Below are positions 124 to 37,116 of a stretch of 37,116 bases of DNA, piece by piece. Source of the stretch: a virus (Duplodnaviria > Caudoviricetes); IMG/VR virus record IMGVR_UViG_3300008255_000071, positions 1 to 37,116 of that record; one strand, written 5' to 3'. Under the pieces are notes generated by a model, which worked only from the letters and a program-made list of their open reading frames with translations, was not told where the DNA came from and searched no databases. Numbering within the stretch: position 1 is the first letter of the stretch; each line of letters starts with the position of its first letter. Position numbers and translations under genes: made by a program.

Positions 124-213
124 ACGGACTCCGTTGTGCGTGTGGTCGGTTTCGCATACACCACAACGACAATTTACTTCCAGCCGGAGAGCGGGTATAT
201 CACGATTGAATAA
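1..213 (+). CDS. C-terminal end of the 634-aa tail fibre/appendage protein that starts at 35302 and crosses the circular junction
   Basis: ATG at 7 corresponds to 37000, in frame with the open frame from 35302; ends TAA 211-213. Confidence 0.88.
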   Translation, partial: NAMLVANPGSYVRDDSWSWNTGAILYASETLGAISESVPTSTDSVVRVVGFAYTTTTIYFQPESGYITIE

Positions 214-1109
214 TGAAAAAGCTACTGCTCAAAATCTTTCTAGGTGCGTTACTGCTGGCTTTGCCATTGTCGGGTTTGGCGGCAGTACAGTTTGAAGTAG
301 ACACAGGTGGAACGCTTACAACCGGATTAGTCGGTTACTGGAAAATGGACGGGGATTCCACGGACTTTTTTGCCAGTGCTGACGGTACAGACAGTAGCGT
401 TACCTATAGCTCAACAACTCCGAAAATTGGCGAGTACGGGGTTTATAATGCCGGGGCTACTACTTACACGAACATCACCATACCTACAAGCACTGACGCT
501 TTTTCCGTATCCTTTTGGGCAAAGTTTGATGCGTTTTCATCTATAGGGGGCGTCGTAACAGCTCAAGTTAGCGGCTCACCTAACGCCGGTGGTTGGATTG
601 CTATTTACACTAACGCAAGTGGTGAGCTTACCACCTTTGCTCGTAGCGGTTCTAGCGACTTTGTAAACGAAGCGACAGGGGACACCCTGAGTACAGGGAC
701 GTGGTATCACGTCGTCCAAACGTGGGATTCCGCTGGGGACGGTAAGGTAAGAGTCTATATTGACGGTGCTTCACCGTTTGTTTCCACTGGTAGCTCAACC
801 ACCTCTATGGCAGGTATTCCCCCGATGGGATTTGGTGGCTTACAGTGGGCGAATGGAAGTTATGACTCATGGGTAAATGACGGCAACCAAACATCAGATG
901 TCAATGTAGATGAAGTTGGATATTGGTCTAAAGCTTTATCCTCAACTGAAGTAGCAGACCTCTACAACAGCGGAAGCGGTCAGACTATGGTAGAGGCTCC
1001 CTCCGGCCCCGCCAACCTCAAAACCTACAACGCCATCACCAAGGCCAACTGGAAAACAAAGCAAGGTATTTCTAAGTCCAATATAAAAACTAAAAACACC
1101 ATTGAATGA
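213..1109 (+). CDS. LamG/concanavalin-A-like domain protein with N-terminal signal peptide (putative receptor-binding or surface protein)
   Basis: GLVGYWKMD, FSVSFWAK, TWYHVVQTWD, VYIDG, VDEVGYWSKALSSTEVADLYNSG are LamG-3 motifs; MKKLLLKIFLGALLLALPLSGLAA is signal-peptide-like. Confidence 0.85.
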   Translation: MKKLLLKIFLGALLLALPLSGLAAVQFEVDTGGTLTTGLVGYWKMDGDSTDFFASADGTDSSVTYSSTTPKIGEYGVYNAGATTYTNITIPTSTDAFSVSFWAKFDAFSSIGGVVTAQVSGSPNAGGWIAIYTNASGELTTFARSGSSDFVNEATGDTLSTGTWYHVVQTWDSAGDGKVRVYIDGASPFVSTGSSTTSMAGIPPMGFGGLQWANGSYDSWVNDGNQTSDVNVDEVGYWSKALSSTEVADLYNSGSGQTMVEAPSGPANLKTYNAITKANWKTKQGISKSNIKTKNTIE

Positions 1110-1113
1110 TAAT

Positions 1114-1362
1114 ATGTCGGAAGTCCCGTACAACAACCGCGAACTGGATGAGAAACTCAAAGCTGTCCACTTAAAGCTGGATGAGATTATTGTTCAGACG
1201 AAAAAGACTAATGGGAGGGTGCAGAAACTGGAGGTGTGGAGGGGCTATCTTACTGGAGCTGTGGCTGTGGTCTTAATTATCGGGATTCCGCTCATCGTCT
1301 ACTCCTACAACCTCGGTCGTGAGGTGGACAAAACTACCAGAGCAATATCATTAAGTGATTAA
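1114..1362 (+). CDS. Small coiled-coil + single-TM membrane protein (holin-like)
   Basis: TNGRVQKLEVWR followed by hydrophobic YLTGAVAVVLIIGIPLIVY; ATG 1114 preferred over the track start 1102. Confidence 0.55.
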   Translation: MSEVPYNNRELDEKLKAVHLKLDEIIVQTKKTNGRVQKLEVWRGYLTGAVAVVLIIGIPLIVYSYNLGREVDKTTRAISLSD

Positions 1363-1366: not shown

Positions 1367-2287
1367 ATGAGCTCAAAATCACTGGAAAAACAGAATATCA
1401 AGATCTTTGGTGGCGCGCAGGAAACGCCTTTTGATTCGCGTGACGCCAAGTTCGGGAAGCTTTTTGGTTTGACAGTGGTCGAGGAGTTGCCGGAGGAGTT
1501 TCAGGTGCCAATGATGTCAATTAAGGATCAGGGGAATAGCGACTTCTGTACCGGGTACGCCGTAACAGCCGCCAGTGAGATCCAGGAAGGCGTGGAGCTT
1601 TGCCCGGAGTTTCAGTACGCAATGACTAAACAGCTCAGCGGAGAATCAATCGAAGCCTGGGGCGCGAACATCCGGGACGCACTCAAGTCAGCCATCAACT
1701 ACGGATCTTTAGCGCAGGCTCTAGTTCCGGAGAATTTGCGGTATAACGGCCGCAACCGTGATTTAGTAGCCAATCCCCTCAGTTGGAACGAAGGACTCTC
1801 TGCTGAGGCAGATAAGCACCGAAAAAAGGCATTTGCGCAAGCAGATGGGCCGTACGATATGTACGACAACATCCGAACCACGCTTTGGGAGGCAAACAAG
1901 GAGTACTTGGAGTCTGGCGACGTGAGTAAGCGCCGGGTTATTGTCACCGGTAGCATGTGGCGCAACCAGTGGACCCGAGCAGAGGGCGGCGAGATCCCTG
2001 AAGAGTTTATCGCCGGAGGATTCGGGCACGCTTTTGTAATCAAAGGCTGGCGCAAAGATGGCAAGCTGGTCGCGCACTTGTCCAACGGCACGAATATTGG
2101 CAAAGATGGCGACTTCTTTTTTTCACCGGTGACAGTCAATCGTGAATTTCATTTTGGTGGTGCCTTCACTCTAATCGACGAAGACAAGGAAACCATCAAG
2201 CAGCTCACTCAGATGAATCTTTCAATCAAGTGGAAATGGCTGGCCCGGATTATAGTCGCGATCCGTAATTTATTCCGTAGAAAATAA
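1367..2287 (+). CDS. Papain-like (C1-type) cysteine peptidase
   Basis: IKDQGNSDFCTGYA (oxyanion Gln and catalytic Cys), GHAFVIKGW (His), LSNGTNIGKDGDFF in place of NSWG..WG..GYF; basic amphipathic C-terminus; ATG at 1367. Confidence 0.8.
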   Translation: MSSKSLEKQNIKIFGGAQETPFDSRDAKFGKLFGLTVVEELPEEFQVPMMSIKDQGNSDFCTGYAVTAASEIQEGVELCPEFQYAMTKQLSGESIEAWGANIRDALKSAINYGSLAQALVPENLRYNGRNRDLVANPLSWNEGLSAEADKHRKKAFAQADGPYDMYDNIRTTLWEANKEYLESGDVSKRRVIVTGSMWRNQWTRAEGGEIPEEFIAGGFGHAFVIKGWRKDGKLVAHLSNGTNIGKDGDFFFSPVTVNREFHFGGAFTLIDEDKETIKQLTQMNLSIKWKWLARIIVAIRNLFRRK

Positions 2288-2291: not shown

Positions 2292-2945
2292 ATGGCAGAT
2301 TTAACCGGAGCAGAATTAAAGGTGGCCTTCGAGGATATCGTCGACGACTCCATGCCGTCGGACATTTTGTTGTATCAGATGTTTAACTTGGAAAAGAACT
2401 TGATTGAAACCGAGAGGCTCTGGGAGATCTTACTAGAGCTTGATGAAAGCCAGTCAATCAGCTCGAGCCACACTTTTCAAACTGCCATTTCTTTGCCAAG
2501 CCGCTGGCTTTATACCGACCGACTGTATGTTGGCGATTTACGCAGCCCGCTCCGACAGATATCTTTTGCCGAGTCACTCCGTTATCAAGACGCGGCACAG
2601 CGGTACTACATCAAGCCAAAGGACAGCACTTTCTTTGTGTGTGGTAAACCGGAATCCGGCTCAGTCATTCACCACTTCTACATGACCGAGAGCGCAGACA
2701 TTGACGCTAATACGGCATGGGCCTTTCCGGGTTGGGCTCACCTTCTGATCGCCATCCGAACGGCAAAGAAGTTTTACGCCGTGGACAGAGGATCTAAGAA
2801 TAACGCTTGGGATGATCGCTGGACGGTGGCTGAGCGAGAAATCGTTGACCGGCTGGTCCATTGGAATAACAAACTAATCAAAGAGGCTGCGCGCAATGGC
2901 GATCGGCCGATTGACTATAGCAGCTATCCTAACGTCGTCGCTTAA
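2292..2945 (+). CDS. Putative head-tail adaptor (P22 gp4 / T7 gp11-like position and size)
   Basis: 217 aa directly upstream of the nozzle gene; mixed helix/beta pattern (ISLPSRW, RYYI, FPGWAHLLIA); call is largely positional. Confidence 0.55.
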   Translation: MADLTGAELKVAFEDIVDDSMPSDILLYQMFNLEKNLIETERLWEILLELDESQSISSSHTFQTAISLPSRWLYTDRLYVGDLRSPLRQISFAESLRYQDAAQRYYIKPKDSTFFVCGKPESGSVIHHFYMTESADIDANTAWAFPGWAHLLIAIRTAKKFYAVDRGSKNNAWDDRWTVAEREIVDRLVHWNNKLIKEAARNGDRPIDYSSYPNVVA

Positions 2946-2950: not shown

Positions 2951-4855
2951 ATGGCTGACTACCGCGTCGAAAACTTCAAATACGGTGTAGTGAACACCCT
3001 GGAGCCTAAGAGCATTCCGACTGGGTCGGCTTCGCGTTCTTTGAATTGGCTGACGCTTGGCGATAAGATCGAGCTTCGGCGCGGTTACCGACGCATAGGT
3101 GCAAATGATGGGGTTGGCAAGGCGAGCAGTGTGCACGTGGCCCCGAATGACCTTGGCGTAGAAACTCTTTTTAAGACCTATGCACGCAAAATCAAATACC
3201 TAGACACGGCCGTTGACCCGGACGCTTGGGTGGAGATGGGATCCGACTCTATTCCGCTAGCCGCCAGTGGCGAAGACGTTTGGTGGGATAACATCAAGAC
3301 TCTGGCCGGCGCGCAATCTTGGCTCTGCTCAGTCAACGGGATTTTTTTCAAGGTGATGATAAATAAGGGCACCTCCGCTATTCCTCCGACTCTGGCTGAT
3401 CAGACCAATGCTAGCAAAAACTTCACCGGCCGCATAAAAATCAAGCGCAACCGGATCTATTTGTTTGGCCGCCTGACGGACCGCTCCGGCTTAAATGGCA
3501 GCCACATTGACGCGCGCGCTTACACCACTGAAACAGCGGAGGTTATCGGTACCGGTGATGGAGCTACTCAGACTTTTGCCAACACGCTCGCCTTCAAAGC
3601 TAGTGGTAGCCGGAGGACCTGCTTTGCAATCAGTGTCACTGACGGCGTGGAAACCTTTAGCGACAATCGGGATGGCACTCTTACCGGCGACGCCGGAGGC
3701 ACGGGCACGATAAACTACGCCACAGGAGCTATAAGCGTGACCTTTAACGCTAACGTCGGCAACAGCACTAACGTCACATGCACATACCAGTGGGAAGACT
3801 CCAGCAACACTGGTCTGGCTGATTTTAGTGAGAGCGGCACGCGCGTCGCCGGCGAAGGATTTTATCAGCCCCAAGGTGAGGGTGGGGATCTGCAAGCTGT
3901 GGAAACATACCGCTCGTTGTCTTACTGCTTACACCAAAAGACCATCTATGAGTTTGAGGAAACCATTGACGACACCAACGCCACCAATGAAGTCTTTCGC
4001 AAGCGAACCGGCTTGCCGGCTCCGCGCGCGAGCGTGGCCACCGGCGAGGGCATTTACTATGTGGACACCCGGGACCAATCCGGTACGCAAATTCGCCTAC
4101 TGAGCTTGGATTCTCAAATAGCCGAGGTAATCCCACAAGAGATCTCTTTGAACATTGATCTGACGGAGTACGCGTTTGACGCGGCCGTGGTCGCGGAGTG
4201 GGAAGACTACATCTTGGTTGCTTGCCGCACCTTGGACTCCGTAGACTCTGATTCTAAGCCGGTCAACAACCGCGTCTTGTTATACAATCGCGTCTGGAAA
4301 AGCTGGGACGTGGTTGATTATGCAGCCACCGACTTCGCAATTTACAACGGCGCGCTTATCGCCGGATCCAGCTACGCCAACAACGCGCACGAGCTATTCA
4401 GCGGCTTTGACGACGACGAAGCGCTTTATGACAACTACTGGGAAAGCAATCTGGATGAAAATGAGATTCGGGAGCTAAAGAAAAGCCGAGAGCTTTGGAT
4501 TGAGGGTGACATTGACACAGACCAAGTCATTGGCGTTCACCTATCCATTGACAACGGCGACTTTGTGTTGCTAGGTACAATTGAAGGTGATGGCGATTAT
4601 GTGGACGCCGGTGCGGGTGTAGCCGTAGGCCAAACCACCATTGGCAAAAAGGTCGTCGGCGGTTCCAATGACAATGATGTCGTGACCGCTCACCACTACT
4701 TGCGCAAGTTGTCAGTGCGCCAGTTAATCGGAAAGTACCAGCGCGCTAAGGTTAAATTCGTGGCCCAGAATATCGGTTACGCCTCAGTGTCCAGCTATGA
4801 GTTCAAAGACATTGAGCGCTACGGCAACCGCATTCCGGCAAAATATAATGTTTAA
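2951..4855 (+). CDS. Putative tail nozzle/stabilisation protein (P22 gp10 / T7 gp12-like) with an inserted beta domain
   Basis: Start (NFKYGVVN, IELRRGY), beta-propeller-like strands, NNRVLLYNRVWKSW, 634 aa, follows the adaptor. Confidence 0.65.
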   Translation: MADYRVENFKYGVVNTLEPKSIPTGSASRSLNWLTLGDKIELRRGYRRIGANDGVGKASSVHVAPNDLGVETLFKTYARKIKYLDTAVDPDAWVEMGSDSIPLAASGEDVWWDNIKTLAGAQSWLCSVNGIFFKVMINKGTSAIPPTLADQTNASKNFTGRIKIKRNRIYLFGRLTDRSGLNGSHIDARAYTTETAEVIGTGDGATQTFANTLAFKASGSRRTCFAISVTDGVETFSDNRDGTLTGDAGGTGTINYATGAISVTFNANVGNSTNVTCTYQWEDSSNTGLADFSESGTRVAGEGFYQPQGEGGDLQAVETYRSLSYCLHQKTIYEFEETIDDTNATNEVFRKRTGLPAPRASVATGEGIYYVDTRDQSGTQIRLLSLDSQIAEVIPQEISLNIDLTEYAFDAAVVAEWEDYILVACRTLDSVDSDSKPVNNRVLLYNRVWKSWDVVDYAATDFAIYNGALIAGSSYANNAHELFSGFDDDEALYDNYWESNLDENEIRELKKSRELWIEGDIDTDQVIGVHLSIDNGDFVLLGTIEGDGDYVDAGAGVAVGQTTIGKKVVGGSNDNDVVTAHHYLRKLSVRQLIGKYQRAKVKFVAQNIGYASVSSYEFKDIERYGNRIPAKYNV

Positions 4856-4908: not shown

Positions 4909-6540
4909 ATGTTTTCGTCAATTTTTCTAAAACTCGCAGCCGGGCTCACAGCTCTGGCAACCTCCTTCGGCTTAATCGCCGGACCGGTAGCTATACAGCC
5001 TCCGATTGAGCCGGCACCAACTCTTGAGCAGCAAGAAGCGGCTCGCGATTTTTATCGCAGTGTATACGAGCGGATCGATGAGATCCAAGCGCAACTTGAC
5101 AGCGTGACTGCCAACTTCGGGGCTTCAATACCGGTTGTAGTCACTTCTTTTGAAACATCGCTCGCCTCCGGTATCACCGCGGCCGCGACCAGTATGACTT
5201 TGGTCAAAGGGACAGACGACGCCGGCAATACTCTTTCCGGCTATATGTGCTTCACCGTAGACGTGAACACAACCAAGCAAGAGTTCGTGTGTGGCACAGC
5301 CAGCTCCACGGCTATCACCGGAATGATCCGAGGCATTGATCCGCAAGACGGGGACTTGGAAGTGACGGCTCTCAAACAGATCCACCGCGTCGGGGCTAAG
5401 GTCGCGCAGACAGACGCGCCAATTCTAAACATCCTCAGCCGGATTCTTAATGGCGATGAAACCCTGCCCAATACACTGACCTACGCCAACACGGCTACAA
5501 GTACAATAGTGAACGCAGGGGATTTGGTGAGTAAAGCTTATGCGGACGCTCTAGCTTTTGGAGCCATACCCGAAGCTAGCCTGACCGCTGGCGGGTTTAG
5601 TGAACTGGCTACGCAAGCAGAACTCGCCTCCAGTACCGAGGACGGCTCAGAGGCCGTGCTAGTTGCCCCGGCCCGGTGGTTTAGCTCATTGTTTTCATCT
5701 ACGACCACTGTCCCAGTTACCAACACAGTCGGGAAGCTGGCGCAAGGGTTTTTGGATTTGACGGAAAGTTTTACTTTTAGCGGAGCCGTACAAACAACCG
5801 ACAATTCTTCGTTTGCCATTACAGGTACGTCCGGCGAAACTATCAACGGGGCCACGCTCCCGGTCCCAGTTTATGCCTCCAGCACCAACTCACGATACTA
5901 CGCAGTGGACGGCAATGATACTGACAGGCTAAAATACGTGGGTTTTGCGGTGACCAATGGTACGGCCTCCAGCTCGATAGACGTAAAGACTAGCGGGATT
6001 GTAAATGGGTTCACTAGTCTAAGCGTCGGGTCTGCTTATTATGTTCAGGACACAGTCGGTACAATCGCTACTAGCACAGGTACATATCCAGTATTGGTTG
6101 GCACAGCTATCAGCTCTACCGAGATAGAGATTCAGAAAGGCGGTAGACACAGAATAGGGAGCATTACTCTTTCCGACCAGGGTGCTGACGAAAACACTAC
6201 AACACAAACAGTGACTCTCGGATTTAGGCCAGAGAAAATACGAGCGCGTACTTCGCAGGTCACCAGCTCGGGGAGCGCTGACTCTACAAGCGTATCCGAG
6301 GCAGACGGTACTTGGATTAACGGTTCTTACCAAACCTTGCTTGTTCAGTGGACACAATCTAATGCTCAAACCCAACACGAGACCGACAAGGTACTCCATG
6401 TATATAACACGTCCGCTTCAGAACAGTACGTGGTAACTATTACGAGTGTGACTGATGTTGGTTTCACATTCTCAATCCTTCAAAAACAAACAAGCACCGA
6501 TTCCTTCACGGTCTCGTGGGAAGCCGAAGGTGATTTCTAA
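4909..6540 (+). CDS. Putative tail fibre/spike protein with N-terminal hydrophobic leader
   Basis: S/T/G-rich beta sequence, DLVSKAYAD and FSELATQAE fibre-type motifs, internal VGFA...SGIV...LVGTAIS domain; leader MFSSIFLKLAAGLTALATSFGLIAG. Confidence 0.6.
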   Translation: MFSSIFLKLAAGLTALATSFGLIAGPVAIQPPIEPAPTLEQQEAARDFYRSVYERIDEIQAQLDSVTANFGASIPVVVTSFETSLASGITAAATSMTLVKGTDDAGNTLSGYMCFTVDVNTTKQEFVCGTASSTAITGMIRGIDPQDGDLEVTALKQIHRVGAKVAQTDAPILNILSRILNGDETLPNTLTYANTATSTIVNAGDLVSKAYADALAFGAIPEASLTAGGFSELATQAELASSTEDGSEAVLVAPARWFSSLFSSTTTVPVTNTVGKLAQGFLDLTESFTFSGAVQTTDNSSFAITGTSGETINGATLPVPVYASSTNSRYYAVDGNDTDRLKYVGFAVTNGTASSSIDVKTSGIVNGFTSLSVGSAYYVQDTVGTIATSTGTYPVLVGTAISSTEIEIQKGGRHRIGSITLSDQGADENTTTQTVTLGFRPEKIRARTSQVTSSGSADSTSVSEADGTWINGSYQTLLVQWTQSNAQTQHETDKVLHVYNTSASEQYVVTITSVTDVGFTFSILQKQTSTDSFTVSWEAEGDF

Positions 6541-14209: not shown

Positions 14210-14494
14210 ATGGGAACAAAAACATCAAATCTGCCGACTTGGTTGCAGTCTTCAACCGGTGAAGGTCTTCCACTTCGGGTCAAGAGTTTTTTGGTCGGCG
14301 TCTTGCCGGCCGTGCTGGCTATCTCGCACTTAACCGGTAACCCGATTTTGGAAGTGGACGCGAACATGTGGGTTGAATCGCTGGTGGTAATCGTGGAAAG
14401 CGCCGTAGCATTGATCGCCGCTGTCTATCACTTCGCTGGCTGGGTCCGTGCCCGTTACTACAAAGAGAATAATCTTGGCAAATTCTCCGCTTAA
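14210..14494 (+). CDS. Putative holin (two TM segments)
   Basis: SFLVGVLPAVLAISHL and LVVIVESAVALIAAVYHFAGWVR, basic tail, upstream of the amidase. Confidence 0.6.
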   Translation: MGTKTSNLPTWLQSSTGEGLPLRVKSFLVGVLPAVLAISHLTGNPILEVDANMWVESLVVIVESAVALIAAVYHFAGWVRARYYKENNLGKFSA

Positions 14495-14843: not shown

Positions 14844-15172
14844 TAATTCTGATAAAAGAAAAGCCTCTTTCTGTCAATGACGCGTGGCAAGGCAGGCGAT
14901 TCAAGACACCGGAGTATAAGACCTACGAAAAGCTGCTCCTACTGAACTTGCCGAAGCACAAAATGGTCAAGGGCAAGGTCGCGATAACGTACCGCTTTCA
15001 CCTCAAAAACCACTCCCGGACGGACAGCGACAACCTACTCAAGTGCCTTAATGATATACTGGTGAAGAAAGGGTACATCGAAGACGATCGGAAAATCTAC
15101 GAGTCCCACGTGTTCAAAATACCGGCAAAGGACGACTCGATGGAAATCAACATTCAACCTATCGACATATGA
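14840..15172 (+). CDS. rusA: RusA-family Holliday junction resolvase
   Basis: KPLSVN, DSDNLLKCLNDIL, IEDDRKI catalytic aspartate pattern. Confidence 0.88.
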   Translation: MIILIKEKPLSVNDAWQGRRFKTPEYKTYEKLLLLNLPKHKMVKGKVAITYRFHLKNHSRTDSDNLLKCLNDILVKKGYIEDDRKIYESHVFKIPAKDDSMEINIQPIDI

Positions 15173-15819
15173 ATATAATCTACGCACCGAATTATAAAAA
15201 AGGATCTACTGTCTACCACGCGATCCACAACGCCGGGGGAATGGGAAATGATCCCTTTGCCTCTTCGATTAACCTCACCGCAGCGCAGGTCAACGAGGCA
15301 CACCGCCAACGCTGGAACTTCCCGGACTCTATAGTGAAAATGCCGGACGGCTCACCGAGCTACATTGGCTACAATTTTATGATCGATAGAGATGGTAAGA
15401 TAACGCAAGGTCGGGCAATCGGAAATGAAACCGCAGCGCAGCGCGGCTATAACTTCAATGGCGTGGCCATTTCTATAATGCTCTGCGGAAACGGCGAAAA
15501 AAGCCCCGTCACGGGCAAAGCGGTGGATCAGCTTACTATGGAGCAACTAAAGGCGCTACGGGCTCTCCACGCCGTGTTACCGCCTGTCTGGTACCCGAAC
15601 ATTGTCCCACACCGTCGCCTACAGCCTACGACTAGCTGCTATGGCTCCGCTCGCAATGAAGTCTGGGGCAGGAATCTAATCGTGGCCGGGATTTTGGATC
15701 AGATCGCAGCGGAGCTAATGGACTTGCTTGCGAAAATAAAGGCTATGCCAAAAACTTTTGGGAAGGCTTTGTATCTTTCGGACCAGTTGCAATGTAATGA
15801 ATTAGACGTACGCGGTTAG
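15169..15819 (+). CDS. N-acetylmuramoyl-L-alanine amidase (Amidase_2 / T7 lysozyme-like endolysin)
   Basis: IHNA, IGYNFMIDRDGKITQGR, ISIMLCGN, IVPHR, TSCYG (His/His/Cys Zn ligands). Confidence 0.82.
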   Translation: MNIIYAPNYKKGSTVYHAIHNAGGMGNDPFASSINLTAAQVNEAHRQRWNFPDSIVKMPDGSPSYIGYNFMIDRDGKITQGRAIGNETAAQRGYNFNGVAISIMLCGNGEKSPVTGKAVDQLTMEQLKALRALHAVLPPVWYPNIVPHRRLQPTTSCYGSARNEVWGRNLIVAGILDQIAAELMDLLAKIKAMPKTFGKALYLSDQLQCNELDVRG

Positions 15820-27018: not shown

Positions 27019-27067
27019 TTATCCACAGCCATTTTAACCAGACGGGCGGAATGGTTTGTGGTATAGT
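27019..27067 (+). promoter_or_regulatory. Perfect DnaA box plus extended -10 (TGgTATAGT), leaderless-type promoter of the portal operon
   Basis: TTATCCACA 27019-27027, TG 27059-27060, TATAGT 27062-27067, ATG at 27075. Confidence 0.6.
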
Positions 27068-27074
27068 AAAGCCA

Positions 27075-27242
27075 ATGAAGTGGATTCTACTCTTCGTACT
27101 ACCACTGCTTTTTCTTATCTACGCTCTATTTGCTATCTTCATCAGTCCACCATCCACGCCGGAGCCTTTTGCTGAAGAGCCGAGCGACATCGAAATAAAC
27201 ATCCAACCGGCTACTTATACTTCGCTAGAAGGTAAAGGGTAA
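27075..27242 (+). CDS. Small N-terminally anchored membrane protein
   Basis: MKWILLFVLPLLFLIYALFAIFI; ATG 27075 fits the promoter. Confidence 0.55.
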   Translation: MKWILLFVLPLLFLIYALFAIFISPPSTPEPFAEEPSDIEINIQPATYTSLEGKG

Positions 27243-27256
27243 ACTCAACATCGAGA

Positions 27257-29287: not shown

Positions 29288-29291
29288 CTAT

Positions 29292-29645
29292 ATGGCAGAT
29301 TTTGAAAAAATCAAAGACTACTTCGCCGACAGCGATCCGGATATCCGCAGCCAGATTATTGGTTTGGAAACTAAAATAAAGACGGCCAAGCTATACAACA
29401 ACCTGAAAGGGCACGACGCCGTGAAGATGATCTTGACTCAATGTGACGCTGCTCTCCACTACTACAACCTCTGGTTGCAAGAACAGGTGGTCAACACCGA
29501 AGCGGACAAGATTCAGCGCGCTCGCTTTATGGCCTATCGGGATTCGTTCGCTTGGATTCGCAAGCTCTTCACAGTAGAAAATAAACTAGCCAAAGACGAA
29601 GAAGCAGCCGCGGCGCTAGAGGCGCAAGCAGCCGCCGGCGAATAA
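29292..29645 (+). CDS. Helical hypothetical protein following the portal
   Basis: tATG 29292 after the portal stop. Confidence 0.7.
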   Translation: MADFEKIKDYFADSDPDIRSQIIGLETKIKTAKLYNNLKGHDAVKMILTQCDAALHYYNLWLQEQVVNTEADKIQRARFMAYRDSFAWIRKLFTVENKLAKDEEAAAALEAQAAAGE

Positions 29646-29650
29646 AAGAT

Positions 29651-30034
29651 ATGGGAAAAATACGCAAAAAACTTAAAGACGTTCTCGGCTTTGATACTCG
29701 TCAGGATATCCGGGAGCAGACCGAAGACACCAAGAAAAAAATCAGCACCTTTTTAGCTGATAACCCCAACCTAGTCGTGGCTGTGCTCGATCCGGTAACC
29801 GATGTGGTCGTGGTGGGCTTTCAAGACTTGCTGACCGCTAACCGAGTGGTAGCGAAATCCACAGGCAAGGCGAGTGGGATGATCGCTGATGTGCTACAAT
29901 ATAACAAAGAAGATGCGTCAACCGTAGACTCGATGAACCAACTTCTGCTGATCCTAGACGGATCCATTCACACAATCGCCAAACAGCTTGCCGAGAAAAC
30001 AAAGGTCGCTTATTCAATTAAAAAAGAAGACTAG
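29651..30034 (+). CDS. Hypothetical protein
   Basis: Tightly packed and co-oriented. Confidence 0.7.
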   Translation: MGKIRKKLKDVLGFDTRQDIREQTEDTKKKISTFLADNPNLVVAVLDPVTDVVVVGFQDLLTANRVVAKSTGKASGMIADVLQYNKEDASTVDSMNQLLLILDGSIHTIAKQLAEKTKVAYSIKKED

Positions 30035-30038
30035 ATTT

Positions 30039-30497
30039 ATGGGAACCAAAAAGAATAAAATCGTCGACGTAATGACGATTGACGAGCACGGCCGCGAGAA
30101 GATCTTGCGAACCTACAACAGCGCAGAGCTGAAGGCATCCGACGCTCCGATTCAGGACGCAGAAGAAGCAGCCAAGTCTTTCTGCACTGGCAACAAGGAG
30201 CACTTGACCTACGTGGTCCGGGGCAAGGGATCTGATGAGCCGGAGGACGAGGAGGAGGAAACCGACGAAGAAGAGGAAGATGAAGACAGCGACGAAGCCG
30301 AAGAAGACGAGGAGGAGGAGGAAACCGACGAGGTGGAGTCTTACGACGAGCTCTCCCAAAAGGAGTTGCGCGCCGAAGGTACTGCACGGGGCCTTACTCT
30401 ACCGAAGCCGGGATCTAAGGCTGACACCAAGAAGAACTTGATCAAACTCCTGGAAGACAGCGACACCGCTAGTGAAGCTGAAGAAGACGAAGCCTAA
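30039..30497 (+). CDS. Very acidic protein with C-terminal SAP/HeH/Rho-N-like bihelical motif
   Basis: Poly-E/D tract; YDELSQKELRAEGTARGL...KKNLIKLLEDSD; ATG 30039. Confidence 0.65.
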   Translation: MGTKKNKIVDVMTIDEHGREKILRTYNSAELKASDAPIQDAEEAAKSFCTGNKEHLTYVVRGKGSDEPEDEEEETDEEEEDEDSDEAEEDEEEEETDEVESYDELSQKELRAEGTARGLTLPKPGSKADTKKNLIKLLEDSDTASEAEEDEA

Positions 30498-30521
30498 CCT
30501 GTAAAGATCTTTTACAACTGA

Positions 30522-30664
30522 ACACAAACACCCTACGACGCGTTTGTGCTCGCAGTATCACTCAAGCCCCCTCGGCTTGCTGCAAGCGCCTATTCACATT
30601 CCTCGTAGGGTGTTGTGTCTAGGGGCTTGAGCGATATTGCGAGAACAATATCGCTTTTTGTTTT
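30522..30664 (+). promoter_or_regulatory. Structured leader with interleaved long stems and an overlapping intrinsic terminator (attenuator-like)
   Basis: 30522-30538 pairs 30603-30618; 30544-30570 pairs 30622-30648; terminator AGCGATATTG-cgagaa-CAATATCGCT-TTTTGTTTT. Confidence 0.65.
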
Positions 30665-30800
30665 GCCGGATCGCAATGCGCCACGCGCTAAAAGATTCGG
30701 CCGGAGGGTCGGATAAAACCTTCGTCACCAAAACGATTTTTCGAGTGGTTACTCGAGATTAAATACAAACGAACCCGGGCAAAAAAGCTCGATAGCAAAT

Positions 30801-31907
30801 ATGAATAGACCAATTAGACGATCGGAGCGGGAGCCACACGTGACCGATGCCGATATCGAAGTAGCGCTGAAGATGGAAGAGAAGGGCAGTGAGGTGCCAG
30901 ATTCTCTGAAGCCGGCGCTAGAGAAGTATAAAAAGGATAACCCAGACAAATTTCCAGCCGGCGATGAGCCGGACGGAGATGATCCAGCTACCCCGGAGGA
31001 TCCCTCGAAAGATTCCCCGGAATCAAAGCCGGAAGCGAAGCCAGACGAATCGAAGCCAACAGATCCCGGGACGGATTCTGATGAGGACGACGACGCTGGT
31101 GACGACGAAGGCGATGAGGAAGACGACGACGACGCTGGTGAGGATCCTGTCGGGTCCAAGAAAAAGCGACGTCCCGTCAGGTATATCCCAATTAAGGAGT
31201 ACAAGGACCAAAAGAAGAATTGGGCTACCCGGGAAGGTACGCTCGTTACGGAAGTTGATGGCCTGAAGAAAAAGATTGAGGAGTTGTCGGGATCTAAAGC
31301 CGACGACGATAAAAAAACTTTTGAAGAAAACCTGGAGCAAGTCGCCAACGAAACGGGATTTGCCAAAGGTGATTTGCAGAAGATCCTAGATCTTATCGAG
31401 AAGAAGGTGGCCTTGCCTGCGGATCTAGTCGAAAGACTAAAGAAACAGAGCGAGTCACCTGCCCCAGAGTCTACCCCCGCCGCGCCGGCCAAGAGCCAGG
31501 CAGAGCAAGAGAAGGAGATGATCGAGGCACAGGTCACAGAGTTCGAAAATGAGTTTACTACTGCGCTTGCAGAGCCGGGGGCAGATCCTGAAATGGCGAA
31601 GCACAAAAAGGCAATCCAACGCCTGGCCTTCACCAAGGGATTCACTACAAAATCTGTTTGGGAATTGTACACCCGCTTCGTGAAACCAAAGGCTGACAAA
31701 GCCAAGAAGGGGATTGACACTCCAGGATCTCAACCGGGATCAGGGAGCGGTGAGTCCGCTGACTTCGCTTCTTTGGCCGCTGATCCAGTCAAGCAACGAG
31801 AGTTCTTGCGCTCAGCGTCAATGGACGAGAAGGAGAAGTTCACGGAGTATATGGGACGCCAAAACGCGGGCAATCGTGTCCGTCGTGCCGGCAAGCCTAT
31901 CAATTAG
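30801..31907 (+). CDS. Capsid scaffolding protein
   Basis: Acidic disordered N-half, YIPIKEY + coiled coil, immediately upstream of the capsid gene. Confidence 0.75.
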   Translation: MNRPIRRSEREPHVTDADIEVALKMEEKGSEVPDSLKPALEKYKKDNPDKFPAGDEPDGDDPATPEDPSKDSPESKPEAKPDESKPTDPGTDSDEDDDAGDDEGDEEDDDDAGEDPVGSKKKRRPVRYIPIKEYKDQKKNWATREGTLVTEVDGLKKKIEELSGSKADDDKKTFEENLEQVANETGFAKGDLQKILDLIEKKVALPADLVERLKKQSESPAPESTPAAPAKSQAEQEKEMIEAQVTEFENEFTTALAEPGADPEMAKHKKAIQRLAFTKGFTTKSVWELYTRFVKPKADKAKKGIDTPGSQPGSGSGESADFASLAADPVKQREFLRSASMDEKEKFTEYMGRQNAGNRVRRAGKPIN

Positions 31908-31928
31908 AAATCCCAACGTAACACTTTC

Positions 31929-33248
31929 GTGGCTAACAACCTAGACAATTCTACATTCAAGGAGTATTACAGCTCCAGAATGCAGGTTACCCATCACAAA
32001 GTGGACGTGTTTCGTGCTATTTCCAACTTCGAGGAGCAGTCAAACCTCAAGGAAGGAGATACCGTAAACCGCCCGTACCGAAGTAAGATGGTCGGTCAGA
32101 CCTACACTCGGGGTACGGCGTTCACTGTTCGTGATATCTCGAAGACGAACGAGCAACTTGTCGTGCAAACGGCCAAGGTGGCTCCGTTCTACGTCGATGA
32201 TCTCGACGCCTTGCAGTCCCAGCATAACGATATGAATGACTTCGCGGACGATTCGGTTATCGTGTTGTCAAACATTATCGACGGCGATGTTCTCGGTGAG
32301 TACGATCAAGCTACTTCCACCGTCACGCCGGCTGATATCACCTCTGGTGGTAACAGCACTCACGGCATCACGATCACCACGAGCAACATTCAGCAGATCT
32401 TCTCCAAGGCGAAGATGAAGTTGACTCGCTTGAACGTGATCAACCCAGCTCGCGCGCCTAAAGTTCCGGAAGGAGCGATGCGCGGCAAGCAACAGCTTTT
32501 CGCGGTTATCTCCCCGGATGTTGAGGCTACTCTAACCGAGTACCTGGCCGGCAAAGAAAGCGCGATGGGCGACAGCACCAGTCTTTCCGGTCACATTGGT
32601 AAGTACTACAACTTCGATTTGTACGTTTCCAATGCCCTTGGCTGGAGTGGTGTGCTTGCGCTCGCTACCCAACCGACTGATGGCGACACCGTTACCATCA
32701 CTCGTGAAGGTGCGACCGTGACTTACACCTTTAAGGCCACCTTGGGCGCCACCGCTGGCAACATTCACATTGCCAGCACGGTTGACATCACTCGAGCAAA
32801 CTTCGCCGAGGCGATCAACAACCCGAGCGTGACTGAAACTGAGGACACTGACACTGGCTACGTGGCCCTTTCCGGCACCGTGGACAGCGAAGGATGGAGC
32901 AATCAAGACCGCTTGCGCGGAATTGTTGCCACCAACGACAACAGTGCCGACACCTTGACCATCAAGGCTGAGGGCGTTGGCTTCCTGATCGTGGGTGAAA
33001 CCTTGACTGACGCCACTGACGGCTGGACCGCGGCGCTGCAAAGTCAGCACTGCTTGTTCGGAGTCAAGGGCGCGATTGAGGTCGTGATCCAGAAGGAGCC
33101 GAGCGTGGAGGTCAAAGACGTACCGGACAAGATCGGCAAAAACATTGTCCCTTGGACCCTGTACGGCCTGAAGACTTTCAACGAAGGCAAAAAAATGCTG
33201 GTCGACGTTAAGGTCCGCACGGACGCGTACGCTGCCCCTAACTACTAA
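31929..33248 (+). CDS. Major capsid protein (HK97 fold, P22-coat-like) with inserted beta domain
   Basis: MANNL, EGDTVNRP, FYVDDLDALQS, AVISP, IGKYYNFDLYVSN, TLYGLK; GTG start. Confidence 0.85.
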   Translation: MANNLDNSTFKEYYSSRMQVTHHKVDVFRAISNFEEQSNLKEGDTVNRPYRSKMVGQTYTRGTAFTVRDISKTNEQLVVQTAKVAPFYVDDLDALQSQHNDMNDFADDSVIVLSNIIDGDVLGEYDQATSTVTPADITSGGNSTHGITITTSNIQQIFSKAKMKLTRLNVINPARAPKVPEGAMRGKQQLFAVISPDVEATLTEYLAGKESAMGDSTSLSGHIGKYYNFDLYVSNALGWSGVLALATQPTDGDTVTITREGATVTYTFKATLGATAGNIHIASTVDITRANFAEAINNPSVTETEDTDTGYVALSGTVDSEGWSNQDRLRGIVATNDNSADTLTIKAEGVGFLIVGETLTDATDGWTAALQSQHCLFGVKGAIEVVIQKEPSVEVKDVPDKIGKNIVPWTLYGLKTFNEGKKMLVDVKVRTDAYAAPNY

Positions 33249-33254
33249 CCGATA

Positions 33255-33287
33255 GCCTGGTGGGGCTCATAAAGGGCCTCACCGGGC
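33255..33287 (+). other. Hairpin directly after the capsid gene (stabiliser or weak terminator, no U-tract)
   Basis: GCCTGGTGGGGCTC-ataaa-GGGCCTCACCGGGC. Confidence 0.55.
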
Positions 33288-33301
33288 AGGTTCACAAACC
33301 T

Positions 33302-33925
33302 ATGACCAACAACATCAAAATCGGTTCAGTACTAGGAGTGGCTATCACTCTAGCCGTGATCATAGGACTTGTCGTCGGAGTCAGCATTTCTCCGGACGCG
33401 GCAAATCCTCGATCCGGTGGCGTATCGTTCGAAGACGAAGTTATCAAGGGGGACGTTACTCTTGAGAAGACTCTTACGGTTGACGGAGCCTCGACTCTAA
33501 CCGGAGATGTAACCGCAAGTGGAGCATTTGCACCATCGGCGCTAACTTTTCCAGTGACAACCGTTACTGCTACCACAACTCTCACTAGCGCAAACTTTGG
33601 AGAAGTAGTTTTCTTCGACAATGCGTCTGGAACGCTAGTGACTTTGCCAGCTGCAACCGCAGGTGCGCAAATAACGTTCGTGGTCGGAGCTGTCTTTGCT
33701 GACGTCAACGCGATAGTTGACTCAGCTGAGGGCGACAACATTGAAGGTTCATTGATCGTCGCTGGAGCAGTGGTAGATTGTGACGCAGAAGACCAAATCA
33801 ACTTTGTGGCTGATGGGGAAAACATCGGCGACTACGTTCAACTGACTTCTGACGGCACAAGCTGGCACATTACAGGTAGCAATGCACTTACAAGCGCAAA
33901 GCTGACCTGTACTGATCCTAGCTAG
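33302..33925 (+). CDS. Putative head fibre/decoration protein with N-terminal TM leader
   Basis: Follows capsid; VTLPAATAG..ITFVV, GDYVQLTSDGTSWHITG beta-sandwich motif; leader VLGVAITLAVIIGLVVGV; ATG 33302. Confidence 0.6.
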   Translation: MTNNIKIGSVLGVAITLAVIIGLVVGVSISPDAANPRSGGVSFEDEVIKGDVTLEKTLTVDGASTLTGDVTASGAFAPSALTFPVTTVTATTTLTSANFGEVVFFDNASGTLVTLPAATAGAQITFVVGAVFADVNAIVDSAEGDNIEGSLIVAGAVVDCDAEDQINFVADGENIGDYVQLTSDGTSWHITGSNALTSAKLTCTDPS

Positions 33926-33931
33926 TCTTGC

Positions 33932-33970
33932 TCGCCTACTCAGCGCTTTTATGAGCGCTGGGCTAGGCGA
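33932..33970 (+). terminator. Long hairpin after the decoration gene (terminator or processing stem)
   Basis: TCGCCTACTCAGCGCT-tttatg-AGCGCTGGGCTAGGCGA; no + strand U-tract. Confidence 0.45.
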
Positions 33971-34008
33971 ACAAAAATCGGTCGAGTACTAAAAAAATAA
34001 TCAAAACA

Positions 34009-34446
34009 ATGACTAAAAACTCTTCAATCCTCCCGTGGAGCTTACTGGTGATCGGCATGGTCGCACTTCTCTTTTGGGGCCCGACGCGTGTTATTGAGAT
34101 TGAGCAGCCACAGCAATCAGCCGGATCATTCGACAGCGCCGTGGTGTGGGAAACCGCAGCCAGTTCTTCTTCAGTGCCGGTTGCCGTGACCAAGGTCTTG
34201 ACCGCTAACCCCGGCCGACTCGGATTCGCTATGGAAAACACAGGATCCTTTCAGATCTTCTGCACTCTCAATGCCACCTCGACCACAGCCAATCTTGATG
34301 GCGCGGGAATAGCGCTGAACACCTCCAGCACCACAAGCCGCCCTTACGACAGCCGTGAGCGCCGAATCGAATACACCGGCGACGTCTACTGCTCAGCACC
34401 GAATGGCACCTCGTCCGTGTCCATTGCTGAATACCTACCCAACTAG
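34009..34446 (+). CDS. Small beta-sandwich virion-module protein with N-terminal TM leader
   Basis: VLTANPGRLGFAMENTG...GIALN...YTGDVY; leader ILPWSLLVIGMVALLFWG. Confidence 0.6.
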   Translation: MTKNSSILPWSLLVIGMVALLFWGPTRVIEIEQPQQSAGSFDSAVVWETAASSSSVPVAVTKVLTANPGRLGFAMENTGSFQIFCTLNATSTTANLDGAGIALNTSSTTSRPYDSRERRIEYTGDVYCSAPNGTSSVSIAEYLPN

Positions 34447-34456
34447 TTAGTAGCCT

Positions 34457-35305
34457 ATGAACCAACTCACGCCCGGCGAAACATACCCGTTGCATAAAGT
34501 ACTTGCGGATCCTTTAGGTACGGAAACGCGGTACGTTCAAGCGACGGTCCGGAACGGGACCGACAACACAACGATTGCAACGCTCAACCTGAGTGATCTT
34601 GGCAATCGGCGTTTTCGGGTTATCTGGGACGTGCCGAACGTGAAGTACGTGGTCATAGACTTTAAGGTTTACACTGACTCCGGGTACACCAACTTAGATC
34701 CGAACGAAGCCATTGAAAGCCGGGACTACATTGTGGAAACTCGATGGAGCCAGGCGCTAGGATCCGGGGCTGGCGGTTATAGCATGCGTCCTAGCGAAGT
34801 TCGCGAGGTTCTCCGTGAAGAGCTGGACAAAACCAAGCACTGGGAAATGCTACACCGCGAGATAGCTGAGTGTATGGGAGTGATGAGTCAACTGAAGATG
34901 ATGATCGGGCAGATCGAAATGCCAAAGCTATCTACGAAACGGCTTGAAAACGGCCTTAAAGAGCTTGAAGCGGCAATCACTAGCCTAGACCAGAAAGACT
35001 CACTACGGGCTATTTCTGAAGGGCTAAAATCGATATTGGAAGCTACTCAAGGTGTTGGTGCAGCCGTGGCAAGCTTGCCGGAGCCATTCGAGCCGGAGCC
35101 AGTCAACCTTTCGCCGGTTATCGAAGCGATCAATGCCTTGGATGAAAAGCTACCGGGTATGTTTGAAGAAGTGAAAAAATCGCAACCGCGGACTGCTTCG
35201 CTGAGTTTGAATCTTGGCGATCAGGGACCGGAGGCGCCATCGCCACGCCGGGTTAAAAACGAAGATCCTCGCCAGCGAGCTAGGAATCGATCAATCGGCC
35301 TATGA
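34457..35305 (+). CDS. Hypothetical structural protein (Ig-like N-terminus + coiled coil)
   Basis: YVQATVRN..TLNLSDLGNRRF..KVYTDSGYT then heptad helices; ATGA overlap with the next gene. Confidence 0.6.
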   Translation: MNQLTPGETYPLHKVLADPLGTETRYVQATVRNGTDNTTIATLNLSDLGNRRFRVIWDVPNVKYVVIDFKVYTDSGYTNLDPNEAIESRDYIVETRWSQALGSGAGGYSMRPSEVREVLREELDKTKHWEMLHREIAECMGVMSQLKMMIGQIEMPKLSTKRLENGLKELEAAITSLDQKDSLRAISEGLKSILEATQGVGAAVASLPEPFEPEPVNLSPVIEAINALDEKLPGMFEEVKKSQPRTASLSLNLGDQGPEAPSPRRVKNEDPRQRARNRSIGL

Positions 35306-37116
35306 TCAGCACCTTTTTTGAAAAAATAGCAATCGCAGTCGTTACTCTAGCCACATCCCTTGGATTTGTTTCCGCGCCTCCCCCGCCGCCGGCAGAAATC
35401 ATCGTCGCCGGAGGGCCAGTGTCGTTTGCAACTCTTTCCCCGTTTCGTTTTAACGGCTCCGGGGATCTTGTCGTGCAACGCTCCACCTCTACTCCAGTGA
35501 TTCTGGGCGCGGGCGCGAGCACCACTGCTTCACATTTGGAAACTCCTTCCCTGACCATCACCAACCTCACCTCCGAAGACTGTATTGGCACGGACGCTAA
35601 CGGCGTGGTGCAATCAGGAACGTGTACGGGAGCAGGAGGGGATGGTTCAATCTCCACTTCCACAGCCGTTACCGCAGGGTACTTCCCTAAATGGGACACC
35701 GCCAGCACAGTTTCCGGTACGTCTACCATATTCAGCGACTCAGGGAATATCGGTATCAACACCATATCTCCGAGTACCTCTTTGCACGTTATCGGCACGG
35801 GGCGGTTTAGCAACAACCTAACCCTAGATTCTGGGCTGATCATCTCCGGCGACACCATCAACGACTTCAACGGAACGGGGCTAACAGTTTCCGGCAACAC
35901 TCTCAATGTGTCTGGCCTGACCACCAGCGAGTTTGCCACCACCTCAATATCACAATGGAATAATGACGCAGGATATACTACTTCCTCGCACGCCGCCGTT
36001 ACTCTAGCTGGCGAAGACTACCTATCCCTAGCCACGCAAGAGATAACCGCTATCGCAATCAACCCTGACAACCTAGCCAGCGCAGACTTTGGGGACTTCA
36101 CTTGCAACGGTACGACCTGTACCTTAGACGCAACCTATCTGACCGCCGCAGTGGAGTCAGCCAACTCCATCACCGGAGCCGTCACCTTTGCCGGTACAGC
36201 TAACCGCATAACCGTTTCCTCCAGCTCACAGACCATCACTTTCACCGCTCCCCAGGATTTACACACTTCATCTGCTTTCACAGTGGCTACGCTTGATACG
36301 GGCCAAGGTGCGAACGAGCTGTACGATATGGACCAGAATGTTCTCACCACCTCGGACCCGACATTCAACTCTTTAACCCTAACAACCGCCCTTAGCGAAA
36401 CCAATGGCGGTACCGGATTTAGCACATACGCAACAGGAGACCTAATTTACGCCAGCGCGGCGAATACATTGTCTAAGCTGGCTAACCCAGGAGGTGGCAC
36501 AAAGTTCTTATTTATAAACGCCGGTACTGTAAACTGGAGTGCCCTAGCTACCACCGATATTGCCTCCGGCGTGTTTACTGTTGCCCGTGGCGGAACCGGC
36601 ACTTCAACCTTACCCGATAACGGAGTTTTGGTCGGTTCAGGTACTGGAGCCATCACTTCCTTAGGTGTAGGTACGAATGGGCAACTCCTAATAGGTTCAT
36701 CTGGAGCTGACCCTGTATTTGCTACTCTTAACTGTAACGCCAACTTAACCTGCACCACGGGGGCTGGCACGCTGGAGATTAACTTAGACAACGAACTCCG
36801 CACTGACTCTATCCCAGACACTGACCACACCGCCAACGGCCCGACGACTAACTCCAAAAACGCCGGATACTCTTCGGCTATCGGGGATTTGGTTTTCTTA
36901 GGCACGAACGGAAAGTGGCTAGAAGCTGACGCAAGCACTAGCACCTTAGCCAGTGGTATGCTGTCTATCGCTTTAGAAGCCACAACAGATGGCAACGCTA
37001 TGCTTGTCGCTAACCCGGGTTCATACGTCCGAGATGACTCGTGGAGCTGGAATACAGGGGCAATACTTTACGCTTCGGAAACGTTGGGAGCTATCAGTGA
37101 ATCTGTGCCAACCTCT
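35302..37116 (+). CDS. Tail fibre/appendage protein, 634 aa across the circular junction (35302-36993 + 1-213), with hydrophobic leader
   Basis: Read codon by codon with no stop from ATG 35302 to the window end; GNIGINTISPSTSLHVIG, NGGTG and RGGTG fibre repeats; missing from the ORF track because it wraps. Confidence 0.85.
   Translation, partial: MISTFFEKIAIAVVTLATSLGFVSAPPPPPAEIIVAGGPVSFATLSPFRFNGSGDLVVQRSTSTPVILGAGASTTASHLETPSLTITNLTSEDCIGTDANGVVQSGTCTGAGGDGSISTSTAVTAGYFPKWDTASTVSGTSTIFSDSGNIGINTISPSTSLHVIGTGRFSNNLTLDSGLIISGDTINDFNGTGLTVSGNTLNVSGLTTSEFATTSISQWNNDAGYTTSSHAAVTLAGEDYLSLATQEITAIAINPDNLASADFGDFTCNGTTCTLDATYLTAAVESANSITGAVTFAGTANRITVSSSSQTITFTAPQDLHTSSAFTVATLDTGQGANELYDMDQNVLTTSDPTFNSLTLTTALSETNGGTGFSTYATGDLIYASAANTLSKLANPGGGTKFLFINAGTVNWSALATTDIASGVFTVARGGTGTSTLPDNGVLVGSGTGAITSLGVGTNGQLLIGSSGADPVFATLNCNANLTCTTGAGTLEINLDNELRTDSIPDTDHTANGPTTNSKNAGYSSAIGDLVFLGTNGKWLEADASTSTLASGMLSIALEATTDGNAMLVANPGSYVRDDSWSWNTGAILYASETLGAISESVPTS
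36994..37116. repeat. Terminal direct repeat / circular assembly overlap, right copy
   Basis: Identical to 1-123. Confidence 0.97.

Follow-up and report, generated by a model that had tools for sequence, protein, structure and literature searches.

Membrane leaders, a conserved glycine site and a papain-fold peptidase in the virion module of a tailed phage: a possible assembly route through the host envelope

The analysed stretch of DNA, hereafter the window, is the IMG/VR virus record IMGVR_UViG_3300008255_000071 (37,116 nt), in which five virion-module genes, named here by their start positions (33302, 34009, 35302, 213 and 4909), encode proteins with hydrophobic N-terminal leaders. A 123-nt terminal repeat closes the window into a circle, giving a complete phage genome of 36,993 bp, and the IMG/VR class of the record is direct terminal repeats. 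Because the genome is circular through this repeat, gene 35302 continues to position 213 and the five leader genes form a single module with the gene of a C1-type cysteine peptidase (1367), as the preliminary description of this DNA had proposed. The Pfam and PHROG matches include terminase, major head protein, RecT, FtsK, RusA, amidase and an LPD38 protein. Among the late genes, the capsid gene is followed by accessory genes, a probable adaptor, a probable nozzle, 4909 and two ejection-type genes, an order that suggests a podovirus; the portal, adaptor, nozzle and ejection labels come from position and synteny, without family matches. The coordinates of the features are collected in Table 1.

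The strength of a leader was expressed as the best 17-residue Kyte-Doolittle mean within the first 45 residues. The hydrophobic leaders reported earlier for the five open reading frames (ORFs) were all recovered, with scores of 2.82 (33302), 2.26 (34009), 2.11 (35302), 2.26 (213) and 1.76 (4909). Elsewhere among the 44 ORF readings, scores above 1.7 were found only for the short membrane genes 14001, 14210 and 27051 and for an alternative upstream start of 33302, and the major capsid protein, portal, adaptor, nozzle and ejection-type genes had N-terminal scores of at most 0.84. According to hydropathy and charge counts, the leaders consist of a positive n-region followed by a hydrophobic h-region. 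The comparison of homologues, suggested earlier as a check on leaders versus downstream starts, came out in favour of the leaders, which are present in 116 of 120 homologues of 33302 (threshold 1.8; the best 120 of 477 matches) and in 116 of 120 homologues of 4909 (threshold 1.6; the best 120 of 208 matches), although both lists contain the window's own protein and favour close relatives. The listed homologues without a leader appeared by eye to be truncated, mis-started or fused proteins. Mis-called start codons were considered as the source of the leaders and rejected, since the leaders are kept across homologues. Leaders were also seen in phages whose capsid proteins differ visibly, therefore the trait extends beyond a single narrow lineage. 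Neither 4909 nor 33302 had a match among 50,697 GenBank phage records. In four cases (L034, L045, L083 and L239/L240), the leader-bearing spike or 4909-type gene is present in tandem copies, and the leader is kept in each copy.

The preliminary description placed the end of each leader near a small-residue motif, and the four motifs that it listed were located at nt 33410 (RSGG-V), 34117 (SAG-S), 35422 (SFA-T) and 5113 (NFG-A). The small-residue end proved to be conserved in the families, with the cut placed after Gly within a Φ-G↓small motif (Φ, hydrophobic residue; the arrow marks the predicted cut), but this did not hold for all five proteins. The leader of 213 looks like an ordinary signal-peptidase-I peptide (GLA↓AV) rather than a long-spacer anchor, an A-x-A site being seen by eye in 213 (GLA↓A) and in a minority of homologues, and the site of 35302 is ambiguous, either VAG↓GP (35404-35418) or SFA-TL (35422-35436). 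The motif is clearest in the 4909 family, where 114 of the 120 homologues were scored and 6 were not matched by the pattern: the three residues before a conserved T-I-P are V/L/F/M/I at P2 in 108, Gly at P1 in 106 and Ala at P1' in 108 of the 114. The spacer between helix and site, measured in 110 proteins, is 4-64 residues long, four further values being negative because of a misplaced hydrophobic window; given this distance, most leaders of the 4909 family are better read as signal anchors than as cleavable signal peptides. The motif lies at most 50 residues after the helix in 97 of 116 homologues of 33302, compared with 59.6 expected from shuffles, and in 90 of 107 homologues of 4909, compared with 37.3. 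Moreover, leaderless 4909 orthologues (L176/L244) start with M-A-T-L-P, aligned to the leader-bearing G↓A-T-I-P, and in leaderless L004, L015, L016, L019, L020 and L028 the start lies no more than five residues from the site. For 34009, whose look-alikes in the Atlas are viral proteins of 98-116 residues, the Gly column is aligned in 15 of 15 leader-bearing rows, and two leaderless positional orthologues, with a weak pairwise match (E 5e-4), start just downstream. The fixed residues and the leaderless starts at the site lead to the prediction of a cut after Gly, and cleavage at this position is likely.

The leaderless orthologues came from contig searches, in which 33 of 68 distinct spike cores and 18 of 90 distinct 4909 cores were scored leaderless. 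They carry the same domains and occupy the same post-capsid and post-nozzle slots in related phages. The AlphaFold2 (AF2) model of 33302 (pLDDT 87) contains a knob that superposes on the Pa223 capsid spike with a Z-score of 10.6 and a root-mean-square deviation of 2.2 Å over 98 aligned residues, and that ties with four other phage spike or baseplate chains (Z 10.3-11.0). According to the available text, the Pa223 spike is fixed to the capsid only through its N-terminal residues 2-41 (10.1101/2025.06.11.659172); a freed N-terminus of 33302 could therefore serve as the attachment element. The 33302 product may likewise be a trimer bound to the capsid through its N-terminal segment, as its gene position after the major capsid gene suggests. 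The Atlas neighbours of 4909, which serve as leads only, are mostly viral and fibre-like. The leader-bearing cargoes are LamG, spike-fold and fibre-like proteins, and none is a peptidoglycan hydrolase. The processed parts would presumably be incorporated into virions.

These observations bear on two other explanations. The preliminary description had also offered display on the host surface, altering the attachment of an episymbiotic host. In this case the proteins would be virion-derived but no longer part of the particle, and would act on the surface of the infected cell, for instance by blocking superinfection. Five Paceibacteria genomes do encode a spike-family domain, one of them visibly with a signal peptide, and a giant host-genome protein (G058) shares a repeat with 35302. 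However, conserved slots hold the same domains without leaders in relatives, 33302 folds like a capsid-spike knob, and all recognisable fibre and spike genes of the window have leaders, so display only would leave a particle without receptor-binding parts; this explanation lost ground and is now quite improbable. It is also improbable, if slightly less so, that the leaders are kept and the particles acquire these parts together with host membrane, as lipid-associated or vesicle-borne virions or by docking on the membrane for exit, with Gly acting as a flexible hinge. Most leaders are indeed strong transmembrane (TM) helices without a nearby AxA site, and Gly often marks the ends of linkers, but the residues flanking Gly are fixed across very different spacers, leaderless orthologues start there, the anchor appears cleavable in LysM-bearing versions, and the phage has an ordinary amidase lysin.

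The orientation of the leaders argues for an outside location of the cargo. The flank on the N-side of the helix carries more positive charge than that on the C-side in 101 of 116 proteins of the 33302 family and in 77 of 107 of the 4909 family. In L010, L069 and L182, a LysM domain (E 6e-18, 3e-7 and 2e-8, respectively) is inserted between an AxA-type signal peptide and the Gly site. A LysM spacer makes sense only outside the membrane, which points to export of the C-terminal part. The leaders are also linked to cysteines, with counts inflated by relatedness: at least two Cys are present in the core of 35 of 35 leader-bearing spikes versus 1 of 33 leaderless ones, and in 65 of 72 leader-bearing versus 3 of 18 leaderless 4909 proteins. 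Of the three exceptions in 4909, L041 has a short leader, L237 is truncated and the leader of L247 escaped the script. L176 provides an internal case, as its 4909 protein lacks both the leader and the Cys pair, yet its spike gene retains the leader. The Cys pairs may form disulphides, and export of the leader-bearing parts is very probable. The reverse arrangement, in which inward-facing anchors tether assembly intermediates on the cytoplasmic side and a cytoplasmic C1 enzyme trims them, would suit a peptidase that lacks a signal peptide and ends in a basic hydrophobic helix. It is nevertheless highly improbable, because the charge bias, the LysM spacers, the AxA variants and the leader-linked Cys pairs all indicate an outside C-terminus. 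A second recurring spacer module of about 45 residues, with a Y-x-G-T-x-x-Q-N-like motif, lies between signal peptide and Gly site in L047, L211, L241, L010:2899-3735, P0160 and P0179; it matches no Pfam family and may be an unnamed wall-binding domain.

The peptidase encoded at 1367 was modelled with a pLDDT of 93.8, and its top fold and profile match is xylellain (3ois; Foldseek E 1.6e-12). Cys61 and His221 are invariant in 26 alignment rows, and the oxyanion residue Q55 is invariant in 16 close rows. PF00112 matches 5 of the 26 alignment members, but not the window enzyme itself, and is too insensitive for counting C1 genes, having missed known ones in L001, L158, L182, L077 and L014. Papain-family enzymes typically prefer a hydrophobic residue at P2, and proteolytic activity with such a preference is predicted for C1. 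The enzyme has a basic, hydrophobic C-terminal helix. In 53 of 65 distinct C1 proteins, the stretch lying 20-40 residues N-terminal to the catalytic Cys contains a Φ-G-small motif, compared with 9.4 expected from their own catalytic domains, and xylellain is without it at that N-terminal place; such a motif would fit self-activation at the site used in the substrates.

Co-occurrence of leaders and C1, named earlier as a check, was borne out in the records counted, which were at least 33 kb long and came from queries with capsid, nozzle, spike or 4909 rather than with C1. C1 was present in 21 of 22 leader-bearing records (L001, L010, L011, L036, L051, L055, L077, L157, L158, L159, L172, L175, L176, L179, L182, L183, L184, L210, L228, L251 and L254) and in 1 of 8 leaderless records, namely L016, the other seven being L017, L021, L043, L058, L090, L095 and L187; the leaderless status of L043, L187 and the L058/L090/L095 group is based on one gene. 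Leaderless records of 30-33 kb (L022, L084 and L088) were likewise without C1. The idea that leaders do not co-occur with C1 was rejected, as L205 has a leader, the spike gene of L176 encodes one, and the apparent exceptions are mostly fragments. The gene preceding C1 in L171 and G416 is Phage_holin_4_1, C1 and Amidase_2 form a fusion in L195, and weak matches to lysozyme and CHAP domains accompany C1 in G416 and L205. Since the window has a separate amidase endolysin, C1 is additional to the standard lysin. Moreover, C1 lacks a signal peptide, so an exit that depends on the holin would account for its access to exported substrates and would set the moment at which they are freed. If cleavage takes place, C1 is probably the enzyme responsible, a claim made with somewhat less assurance than that of the site itself. 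When the catalytic domain of C1 was predicted in complex with the site segment of 4909, the score was 0.09; as controls were not folded, this result weighs neither way.

Several results weigh against a release of the parts by C1 at the Gly site. Enrichment of the motif is modest in pooled fibres (33 of 51 versus 21.6 expected) and in small proteins (25 of 46 versus 17.7). Within the window, the canonical hydrophobic P2 is confined to 4909; the residue is small in three of the four anchored proteins (S, A, A or S), with an atypical Ser in 33302 and Ala in 34009. In the 4909 family, P1 is Ala in 7 and Ser in 1 of 114 proteins, which are AxA-type sites without Gly, so that host signal peptidase can suffice. 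In the window C1, the column of the papain catalytic Asn (N-S-W-G) is occupied by Leu (L-S-N-G), a few homologues retaining Q-N-S there, and the F-G pairs at 29-30 and 33-34 of its N-terminal segment stand within F-G-K and F-G-L, outside the counted pattern; the F/L-G lies in a predicted short helix and could be structural. The co-occurrence is not independent, as the leaderless records fall in few clades and the C1 profile was built from leader-bearing phages. Leader-bearing L167 (G410), which is without head genes, has no C1, and leaderless L016 carries C1 where L017 carries an amidase. Finally, the holin adjacency and the lysin fusions fit a plain envelope hydrolase equally well.

A rival reading is that the parts are exported and cut by a host enzyme, either signal peptidase I or another envelope protease, with C1 acting as a second lysin on the cell envelope. 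The sequence V/L/F-G-A also obeys the -3/-1 rule of signal peptidase I, AxA variants exist, 213 has an ordinary signal peptide, and C1 is fused to or beside lysins and is present in leaderless L016. However, spacers of up to 64 residues and a LysM domain between AxA and Gly sites exceed the geometry usual for signal peptidase I, the window already has an amidase, the motif recurs in the C1 N-terminus, and sampled host proteins do not use it. In 179 single-TM proteins (partial sequences from 11 Patescibacteria genomes) the motif was not enriched, with 74 occurrences versus 74.8 expected, and in the same sample a host-wide TM...VLG signal was rejected (VLG 6 versus 4.1). C1 of this type occurred in 2 of 201 Paceibacteria genomes. 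The lack of enrichment in the sampled host proteins and the rarity of C1 in Paceibacteria therefore favour a phage enzyme, and cutting by a host enzyme is considered unlikely.

The preferred reading is thus a two-compartment route. Spike- and fibre-like parts would be made with a membrane anchor or signal peptide and a hydrophobic-Gly↓small motif, exported, and parked on the outer face of the host membrane. Once lysis lets the enzyme out, the phage C1 would reach them and cut at Gly, and the freed parts would attach via their new N-termini to capsids and tails assembled in the cytoplasm. The earlier proposal of membrane-tethered precursors with C1 as the candidate protease is strengthened by the conserved site, the leaderless starts, the C1 co-occurrence and the motif in C1 itself, and is weakened by the fact that C1 also behaves like a lysis gene. 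The whole sequence of export, tethering, C1 cut at lysis and joining of the particle has, on these sequence comparisons, an equal chance of being right or wrong. Of the single explanations, release at lysis by C1 ranks first, with odds that are roughly even, and the timing at lysis would follow from its dependence on the holin. More tentatively, and with rather less than an even chance, a large and diverse group of tailed phages may complete its particles outside the cytoplasm, with disulphide-bonded parts tethered to membrane or wall, a self-activating papain-like protease that is freed by the holin and cuts one shared Gly motif, lysis itself setting off the final assembly step, and infectivity gained only on exit.

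Homologues of the leaderless protein encoded immediately upstream of the fibre gene (34457..35305) were matched only in leader-bearing loci, usually directly before the fibre gene. It is possibly a cytoplasmic partner of the leader system, but not an obligatory one, as the homologue is absent from leader-bearing L001. In a quick nozzle tree of 58 rows with long branches, the 12 rows labelled leaderless formed two clades; one of them, L024, is wrongly labelled, having a leader-bearing small gene, two branches are long, and no direction of gain or loss is claimed.

The host is probably a member of the Patescibacteria. A Shine-Dalgarno-like word precedes 1 of 35 window starts, and such scarcity does not separate the loci (30 of 458 starts in leader-bearing versus 54 of 676 in leaderless ones). 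The leaderless kin L021-L029 use TGA as a sense codon and translate cleanly in table 25, which, in the available text of the source, is the code of Gracilibacteria and Absconditabacteria (PMC10746230). In L021, L022, L023, L027 and L029, which share nozzle and capsid type, table 25 lifts coding cover from 0.22-0.28 to 0.55-0.81, and L021 read in this table has no leaders and no post-capsid spike gene. The spike-family domain of the five Paceibacteria genomes lies on contigs with host genes, and its N-terminus is visible with a signal peptide only in L114. On these contigs (L114:2515-3447, L115, L276, L277 and L278), the capsid-spike knob domain stands beside secreted proteins, one with PG_binding_1, and phage spikes and host surface proteins have possibly exchanged domains. 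The G058 protein mentioned above belongs to a Patescibacteria genome. Against a Patescibacteria host, or leaving it open, profile searches of Patescibacteria genomes gave the nozzle in 1 of 401 and 4909 in 1 of 301, both in leaderless modules, and no spacer-like perfect match stood out between window 17000-36990 and 401 genomes. A shrunken leaderless prophage remnant with capsid, adaptor-like and nozzle-like genes lies at G204:C1:718552-729913 in a 1.2-Mb Patescibacteria chromosome. On the same side, short leader-bearing contigs occur in Peribacteria, Desulfobacteraceae and Gammaproteobacteria bins. Two leader-bearing records, G410 (L167; L259-L261) and G416 (L183; L262-L264), are classed as proviruses. 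Both hold leader-type modules with few Shine-Dalgarno sites among integrase, TraG-D_C and Replic_Relax matches. Because the G410 integrase is closest to those of Aminobacter and Xanthobacter (54.5% and 52.9%), there is a hint that the phage family may also enter non-Patescibacteria chromosomes.

Table 1. Features of the window (all on the + strand) with the basis of each assignment; arrows mark predicted cuts
Feature	Position	Basis
Major capsid protein, no leader	31929..33248	phrog_267 major head protein, E 1e-16; N-terminal hydrophobicity -0.02
Capsid-spike-like precursor: TM helix (model residues 9-26) and a spacer ahead of the predicted site RSG↓GV; Cys160 and Cys203 in the C-terminal knob	33302..33925	AF2 model, homologue leaders
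Site at which 33302 is predicted to be processed, R-S-G↓G-V, the cut falling after nt 33418	33410..33424	Family motif
Precursor of a small, beta-rich protein of the virion module: TM and spacer ahead of the predicted site SAG↓SF (34117-34131)	34009..34446	Aligned Gly column
Leaderless protein upstream of fibre gene	34457..35305	Homologue search
Fibre-like precursor of 634 aa that runs via the terminal repeat to 213; leader like that of 4909	35302..37116	
3' end of 35302 fibre gene past the 123-nt terminal repeat	124..213	
LamG (concanavalin-A-like) protein; signal peptide GLA↓AV at 273-287; possible second site DTG↓GT at 300-314	213..1109	PF13385, E 8.8e-15
Small single-TM gene (C-terminal TM) immediately before peptidase; holin-like by position alone	1114..1362	
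Papain-fold (C1-like) cysteine peptidase, no signal peptide; Cys61, His221	1367..2287	Alignment, model, fold match
Probable head-tail adaptor, no leader	2292..2945	Position and conserved synteny; no Pfam/PHROG match
Probable tail nozzle/hub, no leader	2951..4855	Size, position, synteny; no named family match
Tail fibre/spike-slot precursor: a 45-residue spacer separates the leader from the predicted site NFG↓AS (5113-5127; cut expected after nt 5121); first domain with a Cys pair	4909..6540	
Two-TM holin-like gene (putative), separate lysis block	14210..14494	Hydrophobicity; no family match
Amidase endolysin	15169..15819	PF01510, E 9e-10

The small gene at 1114..1362 had no Pfam, PHROG or NCBIfam match, and a scan for promoters and terminators gave nothing exceeding shuffles. 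For positions 31900-36900, no RNA holder was listed. Elsewhere in the window, positions 7999-13995 encode a 1998-residue probable ejection protein that combines LPD38 with a zeta-toxin-like kinase domain (Pfam E 4e-11), and positions 17932-19866 encode a fusion of a PD-(D/E)XK nuclease with an FtsK motor domain, immediately after RecT. A perfect 48-nt palindrome (16073-16120) is located where the late genes end, and long intergenic inverted repeats lie at 30544-30648, 20224-20376 and 21664-21820, with arms of 27, 21 and 21 nt, respectively.

Tailed phages are taught as assembling wholly in the cytoplasm. If correct, the proposed route would give them a pathway that spans two compartments and couples maturation to lysis, phage-encoded papain-type peptidases would gain a defined substrate, and the annotation of virion-module genes with signal peptides in uncultured phages would change. 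As the site, the enzyme and the catalytic residue are named, a laboratory host would suffice for testing the central step, with no need to culture the phage. Within the literature searched, a route with membrane-tethered, protease-released parts was not found for tailed phages: no description of export leaders or of a C1-cut Gly motif on their virion proteins was met in the available texts (including PMC13059738, PMC12911398, PMC10318531 and PMC10746230), although such leaders could be mentioned in annotation tables of papers on Patescibacteria phages.

Individual elements of the route do have counterparts. Pa223 gp52 (PDB 9ny6; 10.1101/2025.06.11.659172) shares the C-terminal knob fold with 33302 and, in the available text, is an N-terminally anchored capsid spike, but identity is 12% and gp52 is modelled from residue 2, with no removable leader. 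A TM leader, a Gly site and a Cys pair set the 33302 product apart, and tailspike and baseplate domains score equally. In phi24B gp84, a virion part is trimmed before or during assembly, but the available text mentions no export leader, with 'signal peptide' and 'periplasm' both at 0 occurrences (10.64898/2026.04.10.717836). The window peptidase has the fold of xylellain and papain C1 enzymes (3ois), with the catalytic Cys and His, the oxyanion Gln and the N-terminal G...D-x-R-D-F segment; it differs in being phage-encoded beside holin-like genes, with a Φ-Gly motif after R-D-F and Leu at the catalytic-Asn column, and with lysin fusions in some relatives.

Prohead proteases and Gly-directed viral proteases trim virion parts and, to our knowledge, phage virion-protein trimming acts in the cytoplasm or prohead. 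SAR endolysins are late phage lysozymes that are Sec-exported, anchored by their N-terminus and released uncut when the holin acts. They resemble the window proteins as exported, anchored late proteins freed at holin action, but the cargo of the window is structural and its release is predicted to be proteolytic at a conserved site. Inovirus procoat, in turn, illustrates virion proteins with export leaders staged in the membrane, where host signal peptidase acts and extrusion proceeds without lysis. The window phage shares the export leaders and the staging, but is tailed and terminase-packaged, has holin-like and amidase genes, and its HK97-type head protein, portal and tail core are leaderless. 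Double-glycine leaders are cut at Gly before a small residue by the papain-like C39 and, having no TM helix, need an ABC exporter. The leader end and the papain-like enzyme are similar in the window, but its leaders are TM-like, and no ABC transporter or C39 was matched by Pfam among the 43 window proteins. The elements added by the window family to these known systems are the long-spacer anchor, the Gly site, the LysM tether and the linked C1.

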